A stretch of 64,000 bases of DNA from Gemmatales bacterium (GCA_041640595.1 JBEPZY010000001.1:704001-768000); one strand, 5' to 3'; positions 21,613 to 64,000 are shown, counted from the stretch's first letter. A program made the numbers and translations. Notes: generated from the sequence alone by a model not told the origin.

Positions 21613-22665
21613 TCAACACACGACCAGGCGGAAACTATCCGTCGCCGGCAACGCCTCGCCAACACGCGCGGCCAGGCAACCGCCTTCGCGCAACCGCGTT
21701 TCCAGTTCCGAAAGATTCTCCTCTGCTACCGCGATGAGTAACCCGCCTGAAGTTTGAGCGTCGTAAAAGATTTCCATGCGAATTCTGTCGGGCCGACCTT
21801 CGATACGCAGGCCGGGCTCAACGAACGCGCGATTCGTCCTGCTGGCGCGGGTGAAAAACTTCCGCTCGACCAGTTCCTCAACGCCAGGAAGTAAGGGTAA
21901 CCGCTCCAGATAAATGCGAAAAGTGCAGCCACTTGCCTCGGCCATTTCGTAAGCATGTCCGGCCAGGCCGAATCCCGTAATATCGGTCATCGCATGAGCC
22001 CGTGCCGCTTTGGCCGCTTCTGCCGCTTCGCGATTCAGTTGAATCATGCTGGAAATAGCTGCTTGCAACGTGGCTTCTGGACATTTGCCAGCTCGATGAG
22101 CCGTGGTAACGAACCCGGTGCCTAGCGGCTTTGTCAGTACCAGCACATCTCCAGGTCGGGCACCCGCATTGGTGATCACCTGAGAAGGATGAACGACGCC
22201 CAGAACTGATAATCCATACTTAATCTCGCGATCTCGAACCGTATGTCCGCCGATAACAACGCAGCCAGCTTCCCGGCATCGCTCAGCGCCGCCTTGCAGA
22301 ATCCTGGCAAGAATCTCCAGCGGTAACTCATCGTCCGGAAATCCCACCAGGTTCAGCGCGGTCTTCGGTGTTCCCCCCATGGCGTACACATCGCTCAGGG
22401 CATTCGCGGCGGCGATCTGCCCGTACACATAGGGGTCGTCCACAACCGGCGGGAAAAAGTCCAGCGTCTGCACCACTGCCAGATCATCACTGAGACGATA
22501 TACCCCTGCGTCGTCGGCTGTCGCGGTGCCCACGAGAACGTTGGAATCTTTGATTGTCGGCAACTCACGCAGCACCTGCGCGAGGCCCGATGCGGGCAGC
22601 TTGCCTGCTCAACCTGCGCAAGTTGCGTAATCCGTCAGCCGTTTTCTGCGACCAAAGTTCCACAT
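21613..22665 (-). CDS. selD: Selenide, water dikinase (selenophosphate synthetase), Sec-containing (TGA at 22611-22609)
   Basis: MWNFGRRKRLTDYATCAG-U-AGKLPASGLAQVL in frame with DDAGVY, QTLDFFPP, ANALSDVYAMGG, TDITGFGL, DAQTSGGLL. Confidence 0.95.
22585..22597 (-). promoter_or_regulatory. Candidate SECIS of selD
   Basis: GCCC-GCAUC-GGGC hairpin starting 11 nt after the UGA; loop begins with G. Confidence 0.55.
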
Positions 22666-22821: not shown

Positions 22822-23061
22822 TTACAGGCCGGCACGCTTTTTCAGTTGCTCCACCACCCAGTTTTCGTCCGGGAATTGGCCAGTCTTGAGTTTCGAATAC
22901 AGGGTCTCGCCGTTTACCTGAATTTCAAAGCAACCTCCAGTTCCCGGCACCAGGGTGAACTCGCTGATTTTGTTTTTCAGGGCGGTGAGCACCTGGCTCG
23001 TCAAACTGACGGCCCGCGGCTCGTAGTTTCACTGGTAGCAGTATTCCAGTCGGATTTTCAT
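22822..23061 (-). CDS. SelW/SelT/SelH (Rdx) family selenoprotein (TGA at 23031-23029; CxxU)
   Basis: SD GGAGGTG, then MKIRLEYCYQ-U-NYEPRAVSL...GTGGCFEIQVNGETLYSKLKTGQFPD. Confidence 0.92.
23004..23028 (-). promoter_or_regulatory. Candidate SECIS of the Rdx gene
   Basis: AACU-ACG-a-GCC-GCG-GGC-CGU-c-AGUU hairpin directly after the UGA. Confidence 0.55.
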
Positions 23062-54753: not shown

Positions 54754-55174
54754 AGCGATCTCTCCGCCTGACCGATTGTTCAGGCACATTGTGGGTTAGT
54801 CCGCGGCCAGGTTCCCATATCGAGCAGTAGAAGCGGAAAGTGTGGCCGTTAGTCGGTGCCCGTTGACCACGTTATCGCTGCACATACAGGAAAGCCGCTT
54901 CGAATTGGCAACAGGAATCGGTGCAGGCTGGGCGTTACCCAGGCAAAAACCGCTATTGACCGGCACGCACCGGTACATTATTGAGCCGCTCTCTGGCAAG
55001 GGGCCTGTGCGCTCGTCATCTGCGATCGGGGAAAAGACTCGCGCCGTGAAGGCCACCGTTGCCTGGCATCGCAACCCGAAAAGCAACCGCGAAAGCTCAA
55101 AAATCGCTCTGCCGGCAATGCGGGGGACACCGGCAGCGAGCAGGCTTAGGCGGGAAGCACAAGGAGGAAGCACG

Positions 55175-58100
55175 GTGAACAGGGGTCAGTGGCTGGCCTG
55201 GTGGACGAGTGTTGGGCTGGTCATCGGGATTGTGGGCAGCCTGACGGGACAGCAAGCGGATACCGTTACTCGGCCGGCTGGCGCAACCATGCGTCCGGCG
55301 GCGGCGTTGCAGGAAGCCATCAATCTCTACCGCAAAGGCGAGTACGAAGAAGCCGCCAGGTTATTCGAGTTGGCCCAGCAGGGTCGCCAGCAACTCAGTC
55401 CAACCGAGCAGCAACGCCTGGACGAATACCGCAACCGCAATGAGGTGGCTCGTCTCGGTCGCCAGCAGACCCTGCAACAGTTGCAGGCTGCCCAGGAAGC
55501 GGTCAAGAACGGTCAGTGGAACGAGGCCGAGAACCTTCTGAAACAGCTGCGATCTAGCAACTATCTCAAACCGGAAGAACAGGCCCTGGTCAACCAACTG
55601 AGCGATCGCGTAGCTCGCCGGAACAATCGGCGCTGGTCGCTCTTCAACCGTGAAAGCAACGGGACGCGCAGCGACGCCGAGTCGTTGCTGGCGCAGGGGC
55701 GCGAGGCTCTCAAGAATAACGAACTCGACCGAGCCGAGACGCTGGCCCGACAGGCGAAGGAAGCCGGATATTCGGCTATTTTCCCCTGGAGCGATTCCCC
55801 CGACAAACTGCTCCGCGACGTTCAAGCAGCCCGATCGCGTCAGCAACCGGACAACGCCGCTACTGCCGCCACTCCCGATGCGGATCAACTGCTGGCGCAG
55901 GCGCGTGAAGCGTTTCGGCAAGGCGACCTCGACCGCGCCGAACAACTGGCACAGCAGGCCAAACAGGCCGGGCATTCCTCCTGGTTGCCGTGGAGCGATA
56001 CACCCGATAAAGTCCTGCGCGACGTCCAGCAAGCTCGTCGCACCCAAGGGCAGGGGACGCAGCAGCAATTGAAGCTACAGCAAGCTCGCCGACTGCTGAG
56101 CGAGGCCCACCAGGCGGTGCAGCAGGGTGACCTGCCCAAAGCTCGGCAATTGCTTGCCCAGGCCGAACGGTTGCAGGTTACATTGCCTCCTTATGAGCCG
56201 CATACCCCGGAGAAAATCCGCCAGGCCATCGCTCAAGCCGAGCAATCGCAGCGAGCAGCTTCGAACGTTTCGGAGCCGGCTAAGCCTGCCCCATCCACAA
56301 ACCCCAGCGACGCTGAACCTGTGACACGCCAGAATGCGCGTGCGAAACTCAAAGAGGCCCGGCATCTGTTCGAAGCAGGCCAGCTCGACCAGGCGGAGTC
56401 TCTCGCTCGCCGTATCCGGGTGGTTCCTGATTGCCGCTGGGGACTTTTCGAGGACACGCCCGACAAACTGCTCGCGGACATTTACAAAGCTCGTCAAGAA
56501 GCACATCGTCAACAGGCCGACGCTTTACTGGCCCAGGCCCGGCGAAAGCTGGAGCAAGGCCAGTTCGACGAAGCGGAAAAACTCGCTTACCAGGCCCGCG
56601 CTTTACAACCGCGTTATTCCATCTGGCACCGCGGCGAACATCCTGACCGTCTCCTGGCCGAAATCAAAGCGCGTCGCCAGCAGGCCAATCGTCCCCGCAT
56701 CCCGAACGACACTGCTACTGCGAACCAGCAGGCCACTCCGCGACCAGTCGAAGTTTCCCCCGCCAAGCAGCAGGCCCAGATGCTGTTGGTGCAGGCTCGT
56801 GCAGCACTCCAGGCAGGTCAACTTGTGCAGGCTCTGCAACTGGCACGCCAGGCCCGTCAGTATCCGGTTACCTGGGGAGCTGACGAAGATTCACCCGACA
56901 AGATCGAAAAAGCTGTAGAAGCACTGCTGGCCCAGCAACGAGACCGTGATCAACCCGAACAGGCTGCTCGTTTGCGCCAGCAGGCCTTGCTGTTGCTCGC
57001 CGATGCCCGCGAATTGCAACGTCAGGGGCAAGTCCTGCCCGCTATCCGTCGCGCCCGCGAAGCTCAGAAACTTCGTGCTGCCTTTCGCCCCGAAGACGAA
57101 ACTCCCGAACAGGTCTTACTCGATTTGCAAAACCAGGCTCATGGGCACATCGAAACCTTCAGCCGGGCCGCTCACACCTGGAAACAAATGGGCCGCTACT
57201 CTGAAGCGGAACAATGCCTCAAGTATGTCCGCACTTTGCAATCGGAATTACATCTCGACACGTTGCAAACCGATCAGCAATTCGCCGAACTTCAGCGTCT
57301 CCGTCAGGGTGCCCCTGTGGCTCAACTTCCCAACCAGGATGAAGGTCAACGTTTGCTCGAGCAGGCTCGGCGGGAATTGCGCGCCGGGGAACTGGTTCGC
57401 GCCCAGGAACTTGCCCGCCGTGTCTATACCGATCATGCTCACCTCCGCGTCGAAGCCAGCCAGTTGCTCGCGGAGATTGACGATGCCCAATATCGCCAAT
57501 CGGTACGCGAAGCCAATCGTTTCTACGAACTCGGTGTCCGAGCTTATAGCCGTGGCGAATACGCCCAGGCCGCCGCTTATTTCCAGAGCATCAATCCCCG
57601 TTTGCTCGACGAACGCAAACGCACTCACATGCAGGAAATCCTCTCAAGCAAGGAGATGCAGCCACACGCACTGGTACAGGCAGGACAGTTGCCACCAACT
57701 CCAGAAACCGCACCCGGTCAGGCAACCGCCACCGACCGCCCCAAACCTGCCACTACCACTGCCGACAATCTCCTGGACAAGGTGCAGCAACAACGGGAAG
57801 TGGAGTTGCAGCGGCTCCGCCACATCAAACTCGAAGCGGAACGCCAGGCCAATCGCTTCGCACAGAACAACGAACTCGACAAAGCCGTGGAAGTTCTCCA
57901 GCAGGCATTGCACGAAATCAAACATTCGCCCCTGGAGAGCGAAGCTGTCCTGGCTATGCAACGCCAACTCGAGCAGCGCATCCGAACCTTTGAGGCCAGC
58001 CGCCAACAACTGGCCTACGACCGACTCCGCCAGCAGACCTTGCGCGGCTCCAGTCCTCGAGAACGCGAAATTCTCGCCGACATTAACCGCAAGGAGCAGG

Positions 58101-60115
58101 TGGCCCAGCTGATGCAACAATACAGCCAGTATCTCAAAGAGGCCAAGTACAAGGAAGCTGAAGTGGTCGCCATGAAAGCCAAGGAACTTGACCCGGATAA
58201 CCCGGCCACCGAGGCGGCACTTATTCGGGCACGCACGCTACGAGCCCTCAGCGACGAAGAGCGCATTAAGTTCCAGAAAGAGCGCGGATTTGAGCTGGCC
58301 ATGCAGTCGGTCAACGAAGCTTCTGCCGCTCCCGAAAGCGACTGGCAGTACCCCAAAGATTGGGCCGAACGCAACCGCCGCCGCAACAAAGCCATTCAGC
58401 CTATCCGCCCGGAAACTCCGGAAGACAGGGACCTCTACCAGCGGCTCCAGCAGCCGGTCTCCATTGATTTTCGCGATAAGCCGCTCAGCGAAGTGCTCGA
58501 CCATCTTCGTTCCCTGTATGGTATCAACATTGTCCCGGACGAACCCGCTTTGCAGGCCGCTGGTATTTCTTTGAATCAGCCTGTAACCATTCGCCTGGAT
58601 AACCGCCCGCTGCGTACCTGTTTGAACCTCATCTTGCAAAATGCCCGGTTGACCTGGGTGGTGCGCGATGGTGTGTACATCGTTACCACCGAAGAAGGCA
58701 AACGCGGCAAGCTGGTGCAGAAGGTTTACCCGGTGGCTGACCTGATCCTGCCGGTGCAGGATTTCGGTAACGTTGGCAACAATTCCGCCAGCATCCTCAG
58801 CGTGATCCAGCAGAACATGAACAACCAGCAGCCCGCGCTGACAGCGCCGTGGACACTGCCCGGCGGCACTACCGTCAGCCAGGGAAGCATGGCTGGCAGC
58901 ACCTCGCCAGGACAAGCACAGGTCAAAGTCGAACCACCTAAAACCGCCAGCCTCGAGCAAACCCTCATCCGCCTCATCCACGAAACCATTGAACCGAAAA
59001 GTTGGGATGTCGCTGGCGGACCGGGCCACATTGACTACTACCCGCTGGGCATGCAATTGGTGGTCAGCGCAGATCCCGAAATCCAGGAACAGGTCGAACA
59101 ACTGCTTACCCGACTTCGCCAACTGCAGGAGCTACAGGTCACGGTCGAAGTCCGATTCATCACGCTGAGCGAAGCGTTTTACGAACGCATCGGCATTGAC
59201 TTCAATTTCCAGGTGGACGACGACCAGACCCGGTTCGACCGCATGGTGGTGGCCCAATCCTTCGCACCTCCAGGAATGATCAACGAGCCGGACCATCTCG
59301 ACAAAGTAGTAGTTGGCCTGGCGCCCACCGGGGCAGGGTTCAGTCAGGACCTCGATATACCGTTTACCAACAGCAGCTTCAGCAGAGCCATTCCGCCATT
59401 CGGCAACTTCCCCAACGCTGTGGGGAACAACGGCGGCCTTTCCTTCGGTTTTGCATACTTGAGCGACATAGAGGTTTTCCTGTTCATGGAAGCCGCCCAA
59501 GGAGACACCCGCGCTAACGTCATGCAGGCACCCAAAATCACACTTTTCAGCGGACAGACGGCTAACCTGACGGTTCAGGATGTGCAGTTCTTGGTAACTG
59601 GTGCCACTCCGCTGATTGGCCCGTTTGGTCAAGTGACCCTTGTACCGCAGGTACAGCCTTTCCCAACCGGGCTGCAGCTGTTTCTCCAAGCGGTGGTTCA
59701 TTCCGATCGCCGTTACGTTCGCCTCAGTCTCGCCCCGACATTCACCGCCTTGGCTCAGAACATTCCCCTTTTCCCGATCCAGATCAACGTCCCCGTGGTC
59801 AACCCTGACGGCTCCATTTCGCAGGTGCAGCTGACCCAGTTCATTCAGTTGCCAATCGAGTCAATCCTCTCGGTGCAAACAACGGTTATGGTACCGGATG
59901 GCGGAACCGTACTGATGGGCGGTTTCAAAACCCTGTCCGAGGGACGCACCGAATTCGGTCCGCCCATCCTCAGCAAAATTCCGTACCTGAACCGGCTGTT
60001 TACCAACACTGCGTACGGCCGCGAAGCCCGCTCCCTGATGATTATGATCACCCCACGCATCATCATCCCGGAAGAGGAAGAACAATTCCTGGGGCAGCAA
60101 CTGTTGCCGCCCTAA
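55175..60115 (+). CDS. Large secretin (type II/IV secretion GspD/PilQ-like) with N-terminal helical repeats
   Basis: SD AGGAGG and GTG start; signal peptide; QVTVEVRF, QAPKITLF, TTVMVPDGGTVLMGG, PILSKIPYLNRLF, IMITPRII. Confidence 0.88.
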   Translation: MNRGQWLAWWTSVGLVIGIVGSLTGQQADTVTRPAGATMRPAAALQEAINLYRKGEYEEAARLFELAQQGRQQLSPTEQQRLDEYRNRNEVARLGRQQTLQQLQAAQEAVKNGQWNEAENLLKQLRSSNYLKPEEQALVNQLSDRVARRNNRRWSLFNRESNGTRSDAESLLAQGREALKNNELDRAETLARQAKEAGYSAIFPWSDSPDKLLRDVQAARSRQQPDNAATAATPDADQLLAQAREAFRQGDLDRAEQLAQQAKQAGHSSWLPWSDTPDKVLRDVQQARRTQGQGTQQQLKLQQARRLLSEAHQAVQQGDLPKARQLLAQAERLQVTLPPYEPHTPEKIRQAIAQAEQSQRAASNVSEPAKPAPSTNPSDAEPVTRQNARAKLKEARHLFEAGQLDQAESLARRIRVVPDCRWGLFEDTPDKLLADIYKARQEAHRQQADALLAQARRKLEQGQFDEAEKLAYQARALQPRYSIWHRGEHPDRLLAEIKARRQQANRPRIPNDTATANQQATPRPVEVSPAKQQAQMLLVQARAALQAGQLVQALQLARQARQYPVTWGADEDSPDKIEKAVEALLAQQRDRDQPEQAARLRQQALLLLADARELQRQGQVLPAIRRAREAQKLRAAFRPEDETPEQVLLDLQNQAHGHIETFSRAAHTWKQMGRYSEAEQCLKYVRTLQSELHLDTLQTDQQFAELQRLRQGAPVAQLPNQDEGQRLLEQARRELRAGELVRAQELARRVYTDHAHLRVEASQLLAEIDDAQYRQSVREANRFYELGVRAYSRGEYAQAAAYFQSINPRLLDERKRTHMQEILSSKEMQPHALVQAGQLPPTPETAPGQATATDRPKPATTTADNLLDKVQQQREVELQRLRHIKLEAERQANRFAQNNELDKAVEVLQQALHEIKHSPLESEAVLAMQRQLEQRIRTFEASRQQLAYDRLRQQTLRGSSPREREILADINRKEQVAQLMQQYSQYLKEAKYKEAEVVAMKAKELDPDNPATEAALIRARTLRALSDEERIKFQKERGFELAMQSVNEASAAPESDWQYPKDWAERNRRRNKAIQPIRPETPEDRDLYQRLQQPVSIDFRDKPLSEVLDHLRSLYGINIVPDEPALQAAGISLNQPVTIRLDNRPLRTCLNLILQNARLTWVVRDGVYIVTTEEGKRGKLVQKVYPVADLILPVQDFGNVGNNSASILSVIQQNMNNQQPALTAPWTLPGGTTVSQGSMAGSTSPGQAQVKVEPPKTASLEQTLIRLIHETIEPKSWDVAGGPGHIDYYPLGMQLVVSADPEIQEQVEQLLTRLRQLQELQVTVEVRFITLSEAFYERIGIDFNFQVDDDQTRFDRMVVAQSFAPPGMINEPDHLDKVVVGLAPTGAGFSQDLDIPFTNSSFSRAIPPFGNFPNAVGNNGGLSFGFAYLSDIEVFLFMEAAQGDTRANVMQAPKITLFSGQTANLTVQDVQFLVTGATPLIGPFGQVTLVPQVQPFPTGLQLFLQAVVHSDRRYVRLSLAPTFTALAQNIPLFPIQINVPVVNPDGSISQVQLTQFIQLPIESILSVQTTVMVPDGGTVLMGGFKTLSEGRTEFGPPILSKIPYLNRLFTNTAYGREARSLMIMITPRIIIPEEEEQFLGQQLLPP

Positions 60116-60200: not shown

Positions 60201-61157
60201 GAGAGCGGCGGGCGTCAGCCCGCCGTGGTTCTGTGAACCGAACGCTGCCCCGCGAGAATCGAACATTGTGCAGCGGCTATCGAACACCCATCCAAGAGCG
60301 GCGGGCGTCAGCCCGCCGTGGTTCGGTAACGCTCTGCAACGGGGTTGATAGTCCACGGCTGGCTTACGCCAGCCGCTCTTGGTGCACGAACGGACGTTTG
60401 ATGCAACATACGCTTGTCGCAATATGGACACGCACATTCGCAAGAGCGGCGGGCGTCAGCCCGCCGTGGTTCGGTAACGAGACGGGCCTGCAATGCACAC
60501 CGAACCATGTTCGCCCATTAACGACTACCGAACGAAGAGCGGCGGGCGTCAGCCCGCCGTGGTTCGGGAATCGCACCGGCAACGGCGAGCGTGTCTTGCC
60601 GAACGTGGATGCTCGCATGCCACGGGGGGCTTACGCCCCCCGCTCTTGTGTTGCCGTGCGAATGTCTGTCGACGAAAAAGCGATTTTTGCGATGGACGAA
60701 CGCATGTTCACAAGAGCGGCGGGCGTCAGCCCGCCGTGGTTCGGTAACGAGACGGGCCTGCAATGCACACCGAACCATGTTCGCCCACTAACGACTACCG
60801 AACGAAGAGCGGCGGGCGTCAGCCCGCCGTGATTCGGTAACGCTCTGCAACGGGGTTGATAGTCCACGGCTGGCTTACGCCAGCCGCTCTTGGTGCACGA
60901 ACGGACGTTTGATGCAACATACGCTTGTCGCAATATGGACACGCACATTCGCAGGAGCGGCGGGCGTTAGCCCGCCGTGGTTCGGAACGAGACGGGCCTG
61001 CAATGCACACCGAACCATGTTCACCCACTAACGACTAACCGAACGAAGAGCGGCGGGCGTCAGCCCGCCGTGGTTCGATGACGCATTTGCACTGGCCAGC
61101 GTTTTTCGCTGAACCAAAACGCGCGCGTCGCACGGCTGGCTCGCGCCAGCCGCTCCT
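60201..61157. repeat. REP-like palindromic mosaic array (8 direct + 4 inverted units)
   Basis: Unit AAGAGCGGCGGGCGTCAGCCCGCCGTGGTTC at about 60201, 60294, 60442, 60535, 60712, 60805, 60953, 61046. Inverted variants at 60354, 60621, 60865, 61131. Linkers are themselves duplicated. Confidence 0.9.
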
Positions 61158-61375: not shown

Positions 61376-64000
61376 TTATTCGCGGACGGTAATTTCGACC
61401 GGCTTGGCTTCGGCACGGTTCGCTGGGGTGTAGTATTCGTAAGCTACCGTGCTCGGTGTCTTGGCGCGGATCGGATACTTCGGTTTGAGGGTGTATTCAA
61501 AGACTTTCACGTCGCCCGGCTTGACGTCGCCGAGGTACAGCGTTACCACCCGAGGCGTGATGGAGAAGCGTTCGATCTTCTTCTGCGATACCATTTCGGC
61601 AAATTCACCACCATCCACGGTGAAGCCGGGCGGAATGCCCAGGTCCACGATCACCATGTAGGTCGGGACTTCACCGTGATAACGAAGCGTGGCCTTCGCT
61701 TTGAGCGTGTCGGAGGTACGCAATTCGGTGCGGTCGTATTCCACGGACACGTCTATCACCGGCTTCTTCGGTTCAGGACGTTGCGTCCACGGCCGGTAAT
61801 AGCGAGTAACAATCTGGTACATCATGCCCGTTTCTGCGGACACGTTGATCCGCACCTCGTTCAAGCCGGTGCGGAGCTTGTCTTTCGGCACTTCAAACAG
61901 TTGCAGCACGTCGGAATTGTTTTGGGTCACTTCGCCGCTGAACAGTTTTTCGCCGTTGATGGTGACGGTAAAGGTGGCGTCTTTGGTCTGCGTAATGCCG
62001 CCGTAGCTGGCAACCAGAGCTTTGAGAGCGAGAATGGTGGCCTGGGTGCTGCCCCAGGTAGGTCCCTGTTTCGACTTGACCAGATAAGTCAGGGCCTGGT
62101 TGATGCTGTTGGGGTTGAAACCCGCTTTGATCATCGCCAGGGTTGCCAGAGCAGTGGTTTCGACGGCCAGGCTGTCGCCACGGGCGTACGTCAAGCCAAC
62201 GCCTCGCTCGACCGGGAAGCAGATCGCGTTCCATTCCGGTAGAGCCTTGCGAAGATTGTCGAGCGTCCGCAGCACTTCGAGAGTGGTTTCGTGTTTGGGA
62301 TCGTAGCTGGCCAGCGCATTGGCAACCAGTGCCAGCACGTAAGCATTATCGCCCGCTTCGTTGCGATGCTCGCGAATGTAGGCGATAGCCTTGTCCACTT
62401 CCTTACCGCGATAACCGCTTTCGAGTAGCGCCCAGGTCACGTAGCTGGTGAGCAGGAGTTTCGGATTACCCATTCGTTCGATGGTTTCGCCGTGGGTCGC
62501 TCCAATTTGCGACCAGGTGCCGTCAGACTCCTGCTTGCGGAGCAAGAATTGTTGCGTGCGGGTGATGACACCGGTGTCAATGGGATAGACTTTGGCCATG
62601 TCGGTGAATTCCATCAGGCCGTACGCGCTGAGCCAGACGAGAGATTCACCGTTGCCCCACCAATCAAAACCACCGCCGGGTCGTTCGAAGGTGAGGAGCT
62701 TCTGATAGCCGATGTTCAGGTATTGTTCCGCCTTGGCGAGGATTTGCGGGTTGGCCACACGGGCCTTTTTCACGTAGTCCGCGACCAGAATGTTGGGATA
62801 GGCCACGGACGACGTTTGCTCAAATCACCCAAACGGCATGCGGAGCATGCCTTCGACACCTTCAATGACCTGGCTCATCACGCCCGGATAAATCTTGACC
62901 AGGATTTTCGCGGAATCGGGGACAATACCGTCGGGAATTTCCACCTGATGGGTGGCCTGACCGGTGAGCCTGTCGGTGATGGATTTCTCGATTTTTTCGC
63001 CATCGGGCAGCACCTCAATGGTGCGTTTGATGGCATCGCTCATCTGTGTTCCGCGGGCGGTAACCGTCAGCGGGAGGTCACCGATTTTCTTGGCGCGGAA
63101 GCGGAATTTGACCGAGGTAACCTCGTTCGGCTTGAGGGCCACCTTGCGTTCGTAGCCCTGGCCGTCGGTCAGCTCGAACCAGTCCTCCTGCTTGAGTGTC
63201 AGGACTACCGTTTGCTGCTCCTTGAGATAGTTGTAAATGGCAACCGGGAACGCTATTTCGTCGTTCTGGGTCAAAGTACGCGGCAGGTCGAGGTCCACGA
63301 AGAAGTCCTGGAAGACCCGTAACGGAGCCGTGGTGCCGCCCAACAGTCCACCTTTGGAAGATGCCGAGGCAGTCAGTCGCCAGGTGGTGATCGAGTCGGC
63401 CAGTTGCAACGGCAGATGGGCAACGCCTTTCTCGTCGGTAATGAGCTGCGGCTGCCAGAGCAGCGTCTCCGGGAAGTACTCGCGGACGTAGATGGAAGGT
63501 TGTTCGCCAGCTTCACCGCCACCGGCACCGCCAGCGGCACCTTGCAGACCACCACGGTCTGCTGCTGCTGCCGGAGCGGCCAGAGGTATCGCACGAGGAG
63601 CGGCAGGCCTGGCGGCAAATTTCGCCTCACCCGCTGCTCTCAAGAACTCTCGCCCGTCGAGAGCAAGCTCTCGTATATTTACGTCCAGGAAGCGGTTACG
63701 GAGCCTGAGCCGATCCATCAACTCGTTGCCGCGGTAGCTGGCGAGCAGAGCTTTCCGCTCACCGGGCTCCACCCACCACAGATGAACCAATTCCGCCTCG
63801 GTCGGTGTGACCAGTCGAATATCATCGGCGGTGCCGAACTTACCATCCGGACCGGCGGAAACCAGTGCATAATAGGCGAACTGGTCTGCCTGAGCCTCCG
63901 GTTGTTTTTTATCCACAGCGACGAGACGAATTGGTCGGCCCCAGGCATCCTGAAGCTGGCGTTGCAGTTGCCGTTTCTGATCGGCATTGAGCTGAGGAAC
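61376..64000 (-). CDS. Alpha-2-macroglobulin family protein (3' part) with in-frame TGA at the thioester Cys (62827-62825): candidate selenoprotein
   Basis: One frame open from 64000: VREYFPETLLWQP, LADSITTWR, VFQDFFVDLDLP, RMPFG-[TGA]-FEQTSSVAYPN, GYQKLLTF, GGFDWWG, WGSTQAT, YEYYTP. Confidence 0.9.
62772..62815 (-). promoter_or_regulatory. Candidate SECIS hairpin of the alpha-2-macroglobulin gene
   Basis: 9 nt after UGA: ACGU-c-GUCCGUGGCC-[14-nt loop]-GGUCGCGGAC-u-ACGU (4+10 bp including two G-U pairs). The loop lacks the usual leading G. Confidence 0.45.

Follow-up and report, generated by a model that had tools for sequence, protein, structure and literature searches.

A predicted selenocysteine form of bacterial alpha-2-macroglobulin, with an in-frame UGA at the thioester cysteine

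In the alpha-2-macroglobulin (A2M) family, a thioester joins the Cys and the Gln of a G-C-x-E-Q motif in the folded protein. The thioester is exposed after cleavage of the bait region and then acylates the protease. The present work concerns a stretch of 64,000 nucleotides (nt) from a Gemmatales bacterium (GCA_041640595.1, JBEPZY010000001.1:704001-768000), called the window below, with positions counted from its first letter. At its far end lies a gene of this family in which a TGA codon replaces the codon of the thioester Cys. The gene appears to belong to a widespread selenoprotein form of alpha-2-macroglobulin, with selenocysteine (Sec, U) at that position, and for this form an internal selenoester and decoding through two RNA hairpins are well-motivated proposals.

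The closest described systems are the metazoan-type A2M and thioester proteins. The best sequence matches in the PDB (phmmer) are human A2M (E 4e-66), A2ML1, CD109, insect TEP1, and complement C3/C4, with E values ranging from 4e-66 to 1e-38. These proteins (human A2M, 6tav/7von; A2ML1, 7q1y; CD109, 8s3o; TEP1, 2pn5; C3/C4) have the same set of Pfam domains as the window protein, and the G-x-x-E-Q of human A2M aligns with it residue for residue. The window protein differs in being bacterial; in having a predicted Sec for the thioester Cys; in bearing an N-terminal hydrophobic anchor or signal, not a eukaryotic secretion context; and in holding about 395 Pfam-less residues between the bait-region and A2M domains.

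Type I bacterial A2M (E. coli ECAM/YfhM, 5a42/4ziq; Salmonella Sa-A2M, 4u48) is likewise bacterial, has a homologous thioester-containing domain (TED), and acts as a thioester-bearing, periplasm-facing protease trap. These proteins are nevertheless far more distant in sequence (YfhM 2.6e-14 and Salmonella A2M 1.5e-12, against 4e-66 for human A2M), and they carry Cys where the window protein would carry Sec. Two traits of type I proteins were looked for. The first 45 residues of the window protein contain a hydrophobic stretch at 16-32 and are free of Cys, so that no lipoprotein Cys is found in residues 1-45. Type I genes are linked to pbpC, which does not occur among the adjacent genes that were scanned; these encode a response regulator-HD protein, a DUF11 protein, and a secretin-domain protein, and no genome-wide search for pbpC was made.

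Bacterial selenoproteins such as SelD and FdhA provide the second comparison. The window gene has in common with them a conserved in-frame UGA, Cys homologues at the same column, a downstream hairpin within the gene that has a G in its loop, and dependence on selA/selB/selC/selD. In contrast, the Sec of the window protein would occupy an acyl-transfer (thioester) site and not a redox or metal site. The G-loop hairpin of the window's clade is also set about 64 nt away from the UGA, with a putative spacer hairpin in between, where the bacterial model expects 16-37 nt.

The preliminary description of this DNA, made from the sequence alone, had proposed that two open reading frames (ORFs), 62825..63916 and 61376..62806, are one minus-strand frame split only by TGA, and this is confirmed. 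The sole interruption is the TGA at 62825-62827, around which the frame reads ...GMLRMPFG-TGA-FEQTSSVAYPN..., and the residues across the recoded site would be MPFG-U-FEQTSSVAYPNILVADYVK. The gene extends beyond the window edge to a start codon at G000:C1:770964. It occupies C1:765376-770964 in the genome and has 1862 codons, with its single in-frame TGA as codon 1380. The parts that lie in the window are as follows.

61376..64000, minus strand: alpha-2-macroglobulin, C-terminal 874 codons and stop codon (frame reading, Pfam)
63197..63466, minus strand: Pfam A2M domain
62012..62881, minus strand: thioester-containing domain, Pfam TED_complement, E 3.6e-44 (Pfam on the window part)
62825..62827, minus strand: in-frame TGA, codon 1380, in the thioester Cys column, predicted to be read as selenocysteine (frame and homologue comparison)
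62816..62830, minus strand: predicted thioester motif G-U-F-E-Q (GGG TGA TTT GAG CAA), aligning with ...PYGCGEQ... of human A2M
61406..61660, minus strand: Pfam A2M_recep (receptor-binding, MG8)

Across the full-length protein, Pfam detects MG2 (1.2e-28), MG3 (2.1e-9), A2M_BRD (2.5e-14), A2M (2.9e-21), TED (1.7e-43), and A2M_recep (9.1e-10). The macroglobulin architecture of MG domains, bait region, TED, and receptor-binding domain is complete. The HMMER alignment places the TGA on the Cys of ...MPYGCGEQ... in human A2M, as had been claimed for the reactive Cys of GCxEQ. The Gly, Glu, and Gln of the motif are kept, and only the Cys codon is replaced. NCBIfam has no model for the window macroglobulin. 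A terminator had also been said to follow the true stop codon, which is loosely right: a terminator-like site exists, but the only one past the TAA lies at 61119-61134, about 240 nt downstream.

We consider it highly probable that this gene encodes a full-length macroglobulin in which UGA-1380 is read as Sec through a two-hairpin signal, with a selenoester as the most likely outcome. The product would be an exported, 1862-residue alpha-2-macroglobulin of eukaryote-like type, with UGA-1380 decoded by the host SelA, SelB, and tRNA-Sec; it is from sequence evidence that we infer Sec insertion here. Decoding would be directed by a two-part RNA signal within the coding sequence. The stable hairpin 1, which starts 9 nt after the UGA, is probably a spacer that brings hairpin 2 near the ribosome. 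Hairpin 2, whose loop begins about 64 nt downstream, would present a G-containing loop of a type recognised by SelB. Once the protein has folded, the selenol would most likely attack Gln-1383 at its side-chain amide, in the manner of Cys in other macroglobulins, and the resulting internal selenoester would be released for acyl transfer to the trapped protease once the bait region is cut. If Sec is inserted, a Sec-Gln selenoester can be proposed with moderate confidence. It is the most economical reading because the Gly, Glu, and Gln are kept in all TGA forms seen, the architecture is intact, and Sec and Cys are swapped without other local change.

The TGA is conserved in the nearest relatives. 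Each of the four genus genomes, at 79-84% amino-acid identity, has it in the thioester column, which contradicts the possibility that all close homologues have Cys; further out in the family and order, 26 homologues carry TGT or TGC instead. A wider survey of the phylum used an even sample of 401 genomes, 127 of which gave a match, with 150 matches listed and 61 further ones. Exactly one TGA is present in 44 of the 150 matches listed; these 44 represent 17 families and 26 genomes, the window's own among them. In all 44 the TGA falls on the thioester column, as G-U-[F/M/C]-E-Q. Five genomes (G253, G184, G165, G054, and G132) hold three or more Sec-type macroglobulin copies each, and some of these also hold Cys-type copies.

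Metagenomes contributed 62 loci, of which 57 have an intact motif: 45 with TGA and 12 with TGT or TGC. Outside the 57 are four that do not reach the site and one relative, L154, that keeps the TGA and has a frameshift 40 codons downstream; in L154 this may stem from misassembly or mark a copy in decay. Among the named genome loci listed, at least 80, TGA is found in 19, comprising 12 from Planctomycetota and seven from Chloroflexota (Anaerolineae, Caldilineaceae); this ratio is not a frequency, and Sec forms are under-counted because one search pattern contained a Cys codon. The nearest named relative among the loci listed, a Gemmatales metagenome-assembled genome at 88% identity, has TGA.

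Where the column lacks TGA, it always holds TGT or TGC. The closest such case is L098, a metagenome contig that is 91% identical over the query. It has TGT, identical flanking residues, and both hairpins, the pattern that a recent change from Sec to Cys would leave. A full-length protein of 1852 residues with 92% identity has Cys at the site, and so do all 120 full-length protein homologues among the matches listed, which are contiguous and carry generic public names; since only full-length proteins are among those 120, split Sec forms cannot appear there. The residues E-Q follow U-x in every TGA sequence seen, even in those retrieved without requiring Q.

A protein tree was built from 87 TED segments after masking of the Sec/Cys column; on it, the window protein falls in a supported 20-row clade that is entirely TGA (SH-aLRT 96). 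The Sec/Cys label changes at least four times on this tree, and at least two changes are forced by supported branches. Alternation of TGA and TGY codons in independent lineages, suggested earlier as a check, is found across species, families, and two phyla. Within the window's own family, the nearest genomes (L007, L008; G009, G005) have only a 41%-identical Cys form, which falls in another clade, and the SelA profile at its family cut-off does not find SelA in G009 or G005. The Sec form of the genus groups with proteins of other families on the TED tree, a placement that may reflect old paralogy or gene transfer.

The TGA is also present in independent sequencing runs. Runs from 19 studies, including six RNA libraries, cover window positions 62300-63300. 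Four studies supply contigs, from two DNA runs and two metatranscriptome libraries, all of which span 62825-62827; they carry 1 to 8 differences each and none at the TGA, which is not confined to one assembly. The best-matching DNA run may be the source sample itself.

The genome has the machinery that Sec insertion needs, the absence of which had been named as a refuting outcome. It has one tRNA-SeC with anticodon tca (aragorn), and selA adjoins selB on contig C2, neither with internal stops. A Sec-type SelD and an Rdx selenoprotein, claimed from the outset to lie in the same window, are confirmed, each with one in-frame TGA; the two genes adjoin.

21715..22641, minus strand: selenophosphate synthetase SelD, one in-frame TGA
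22840..23058, minus strand: Rdx/SelW-like selenoprotein, one in-frame TGA

These genes, together with the conserved TGA, support the earlier expectation that the organism recodes UGA. In the SelD gene, a 9-bp hairpin lies 33 nt past the UGA; its loop is GUG, which recurs within the CGUGU loop of macroglobulin hairpin 2. Across the phylum sample, SelA scores above the family cut-off in 26 of the 28 genomes with a TGA-type macroglobulin, and the two misses are 59% and 67% complete. It does so in 24 of the 34 genomes that have Cys types only; among the ten without SelA are the two Cys-type genomes nearest to the window's within its family.

Two hairpins downstream of the UGA form the candidate signal for its decoding.

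62772..62815, minus strand: hairpin 1, 14 bp (4+10, with one unpaired base per side) and a 14-nt G-less loop, starting 9 nt after the UGA
62753..62765, minus strand: hairpin 2, GGCC-CGUGU-GGCC, with G second in the loop and then U; candidate SelB-binding apex in a SECIS (selenocysteine insertion sequence)

Folding energies set this region apart. The 96-nt stretch 62740-62835, which contains hairpin 1, has a folding energy of -33.9 kcal/mol (z -2.15 vs shuffles). Over the 66 nt after the codon, the mean is -22.6 kcal/mol in 47 TGA sequences and -12.2 kcal/mol in 40 Cys sequences, sequences being related within these sets. The hairpins themselves were assessed by per-sequence counts and by pair counts on the protein-defined clade of 20 rows. 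For hairpin 1, 73.6% of cells in this clade pair, against 26-42% when the partner is slid, and both sides have changed in 22 cells, against 10.3 in shuffles, with none of 500 shuffles reaching the observed value. As one structure common to all 47 TGA sequences hairpin 1 was set aside, since 62.6% of cells pair against 60.0% when shuffled. Changes on both sides of the stem, of the kind sought by the covariation check proposed for the 14-bp hairpin, thus exceed shuffles in the clade, while pairing is weak across the whole set.

The 14-bp hairpin that had been noticed 9 nt past the TGA is real and clade-conserved, but its loop is G-less. It is probably not the SelB-binding element itself, because the G-loop hairpin further downstream fits the consensus better. 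Hairpin 2 is encoded by AAG GCC CGT GTG GCC, and 32 distinct close TGA sequences use one codon each at these positions, with one Val-to-Leu exception, whereas the flanking four-fold codons use 2-4 codons in the same sequences. For hairpin 2, pairing is present in 73% of cells of the 20-row clade and drops to 23-50% with slid partners, and four of the five pairs change on both sides. Changes on both sides are seen in 17 cells vs 8.2 in shuffles, and the covariation score is 0.338 vs 0.169; in each case 0/500 shuffles reach the observed value. Other clades have different stems at this place, with loops GUC, GGC, GGA, AGUU, or GGUC. Rfam gives nothing near a gathering score in 62650-62900.

The bacterial SECIS model, as set out in the main text of a 2026 review, has a 3-9-nt loop with G in its first two positions, a UGA-to-loop distance of 16-37 nt, and a minimum free energy of -7.5 kcal/mol or lower (PMC13188914). 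A scan for G-loop hairpins was made over all distinct sequences, with at least 4 bp, at least three G-C pairs, and a 3-6-nt loop with G[G/U] in its first positions. A far class was defined by a loop start at nt 59-85 and a near class by a loop start at nt 20-41, both counted from the U of UGA.

98 distinct TGA sequences: far only 74, near only 21, both 2, none 1
109 distinct Cys sequences: far only 11, near only 2, both 0, none 96

A G-loop hairpin is present in 97/98 distinct TGA forms vs 13/109 distinct Cys forms. The segment between the UGA and the far hairpin (nt 10-58) averages -19.3 kcal/mol in the far class, -11.2 kcal/mol in the near class, and -7.2 kcal/mol in Cys forms without such a hairpin. 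We read hairpin 2 as the probable SelB-binding apex and hairpin 1 as a spacer that would shorten the path to it. The protein dictates the codons right after Sec (F-E-Q-T-S-S-x-x-Y-P-N), which may be why the G-loop element sits in the variable K-K-A-R-V-A linker. To the near class belongs the Chloroflexota type, GUACGUC-GG[U/C]-GACGUAC. Sec macroglobulins of this type (L130, L136, L185, L187, L191, L196, L214, L218, and L226) have a canonical near SECIS about 20 nt downstream of the UGA, and the family thus shows two SECIS layouts.

Several observations weigh against a Sec-containing selenoester protein decoded in this way. Hairpin 1 breaks two rules of the SECIS model, having a 14-nt loop without G, although its spacing (24 nt) and energy agree with the model. 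The hairpin-2 loop (CGUGU) obeys the loop rules but starts 64 nt after the UGA, beyond the 16-37 nt of the model. RNAalifold returns no consensus structure on 47 genome-derived TGA sequences and only three pairs on the 20-row clade, a poor result explained by hairpin registers that differ between clades. DNA carry-over is possible in the contigs from RNA libraries, which do not prove transcription, and the sequences compared are related and not independent, so that counts overstate the number of events. Finally, selenoesters are more labile and more prone to hydrolysis than thioesters.

This expected hydrolysis favours the strongest alternative, in which Sec is inserted and no selenoester forms. 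The residue would then be a free selenol or a selenenyl-sulfide, and the macroglobulin would serve as its scaffold for redox chemistry, metal binding, or sensing. Precedent also favours it, as redox or metal-related functions account for nearly all of the 119 prokaryotic selenoprotein families that the 2026 review catalogues in its Table 1 (PMC13188914). The protein itself argues otherwise. The E-Q that follows U-x is invariant among the TGA sequences, Sec and Cys forms interchange with unchanged flanks (L098), and the bait-region, TED, and receptor-binding domains are all retained. No partner Cys stands adjacent to U in the window protein. On balance this alternative is unlikely, though it deserves serious consideration.

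A second alternative is that the UGA mostly terminates translation. It would yield a 1379-residue product without the thioester domain, with or without a separate C-terminal piece, and the full-length protein would be made only with selenium. Sec read-through of UGA is generally inefficient, and a GTG at 62806 opens a 476-amino-acid ORF that could supply the second piece. The part downstream of the TGA is, however, under strong purifying selection. Between genus pairs, the ratio of nonsynonymous to synonymous substitution rates (dN/dS) is 0.067-0.083 over 480-482 codons after the TGA, at a dS of 0.92-1.10, and 0.093-0.121 over 372-380 aligned codons before it. The window gene and its Cys twin L098 give 0.061 in the downstream part. 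Over all comparisons, the downstream dS is 0.73-1.10 and the upstream dN/dS is 0.09-0.16. As many as 482 codons thus continue in the same frame at a dN/dS of 0.06-0.08, with no further in-frame stop. The six codons from the TGA to the GTG, the first possible restart, encode F/M-E-Q-T-S-S in 32 distinct close relatives, and their conservation ahead of the restart codon argues against a split gene. With contiguous Cys homologues and SECIS-like hairpins in nearly every TGA form (97/98), termination as the main fate of the UGA is very unlikely.

Reading of the UGA by an ordinary tRNA (Trp, Cys, or Gly), or use of TGA as a sense codon throughout the organism, is still less probable. Nothing specific favours it. 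A single TGA interrupts the 1862 codons of the gene, selA and selB are both free of internal stops, the TGA alternates with Cys codons only, and the TGA form co-occurs with SelA and with G-loop hairpins. A sequencing error, strain-specific nonsense mutation, or pseudogene, for which nothing speaks beyond the frameshift of L154, is refuted by the conservation of the TGA (4/4 genus genomes, 25 other genomes of the phylum sample, 45 metagenome loci), by contigs from four independent runs, and by purifying selection downstream without extra stops.

Other features of the protein and its surroundings deserve mention beside the Sec site. A conserved THGExI (T-H-G-E-T-I) lies in the TED at about 62400-62420 of the window. 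We take its place to be close to that of the catalytic His in complement C3 (IHQEMI), although the HMMER alignment to human A2M is one residue off. If the two are equivalent, acyl transfer could proceed via an acyl-imidazole to hydroxyl groups. The approximately 395 residues between the bait-region and A2M domains (L095:3467-4651, minus strand, residues 772-1166; partly window 63500-64000) give no significant Pfam match on their own. A stretch within them, ...WGRPIRLV...YALVSAGPDGKFGTADDI..., may resemble C-terminal motifs of pseudopilins (GspG-like). Convergent to the macroglobulin gene, at window 54842-60115 on the plus strand, is a gene for a 1757-residue protein with secretin and STN domains.

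Full-text searches of the literature found no paper on a selenocysteine macroglobulin. The family is absent from Table 1 of the 2026 review, which covers 119 prokaryotic selenoprotein families (PMC13188914). The words 'macroglobulin', 'thioester', and 'A2M' are likewise absent from the main text of that review, of a 2022 review (PMC9312934), of the deep-Sep study (PMC12013277), and of the GOS study (PMC2398784).

If the proposal is true, this would be the first case in nature of selenium serving acyl-transfer chemistry. To our knowledge, nearly all selenoproteins use Sec for redox or metal chemistry. Chemists already use selenoesters for peptide ligation on account of a reactivity far above that of thioesters. 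In its fullest form, the proposal is that a natural Sec-Gln selenoester serves as the acyl-transfer leaving group of a protease trap in at least Planctomycetota and Chloroflexota, and that the window's clade is decoded via a two-hairpin SECIS with its loop about 64 nt from the UGA; for this whole we see roughly even chances. The window protein and its 91%-identical Cys twin would offer a natural Sec/Cys pair with which to ask what selenium gives a covalent protease trap. A G-loop hairpin placed this far from the UGA, with a putative spacer hairpin in between, is relevant to the question of why some selenoprotein genes escape SECIS-based predictors. The prokaryotic selenoproteome would gain a large and widespread family, whose members gene callers split into two ORFs.

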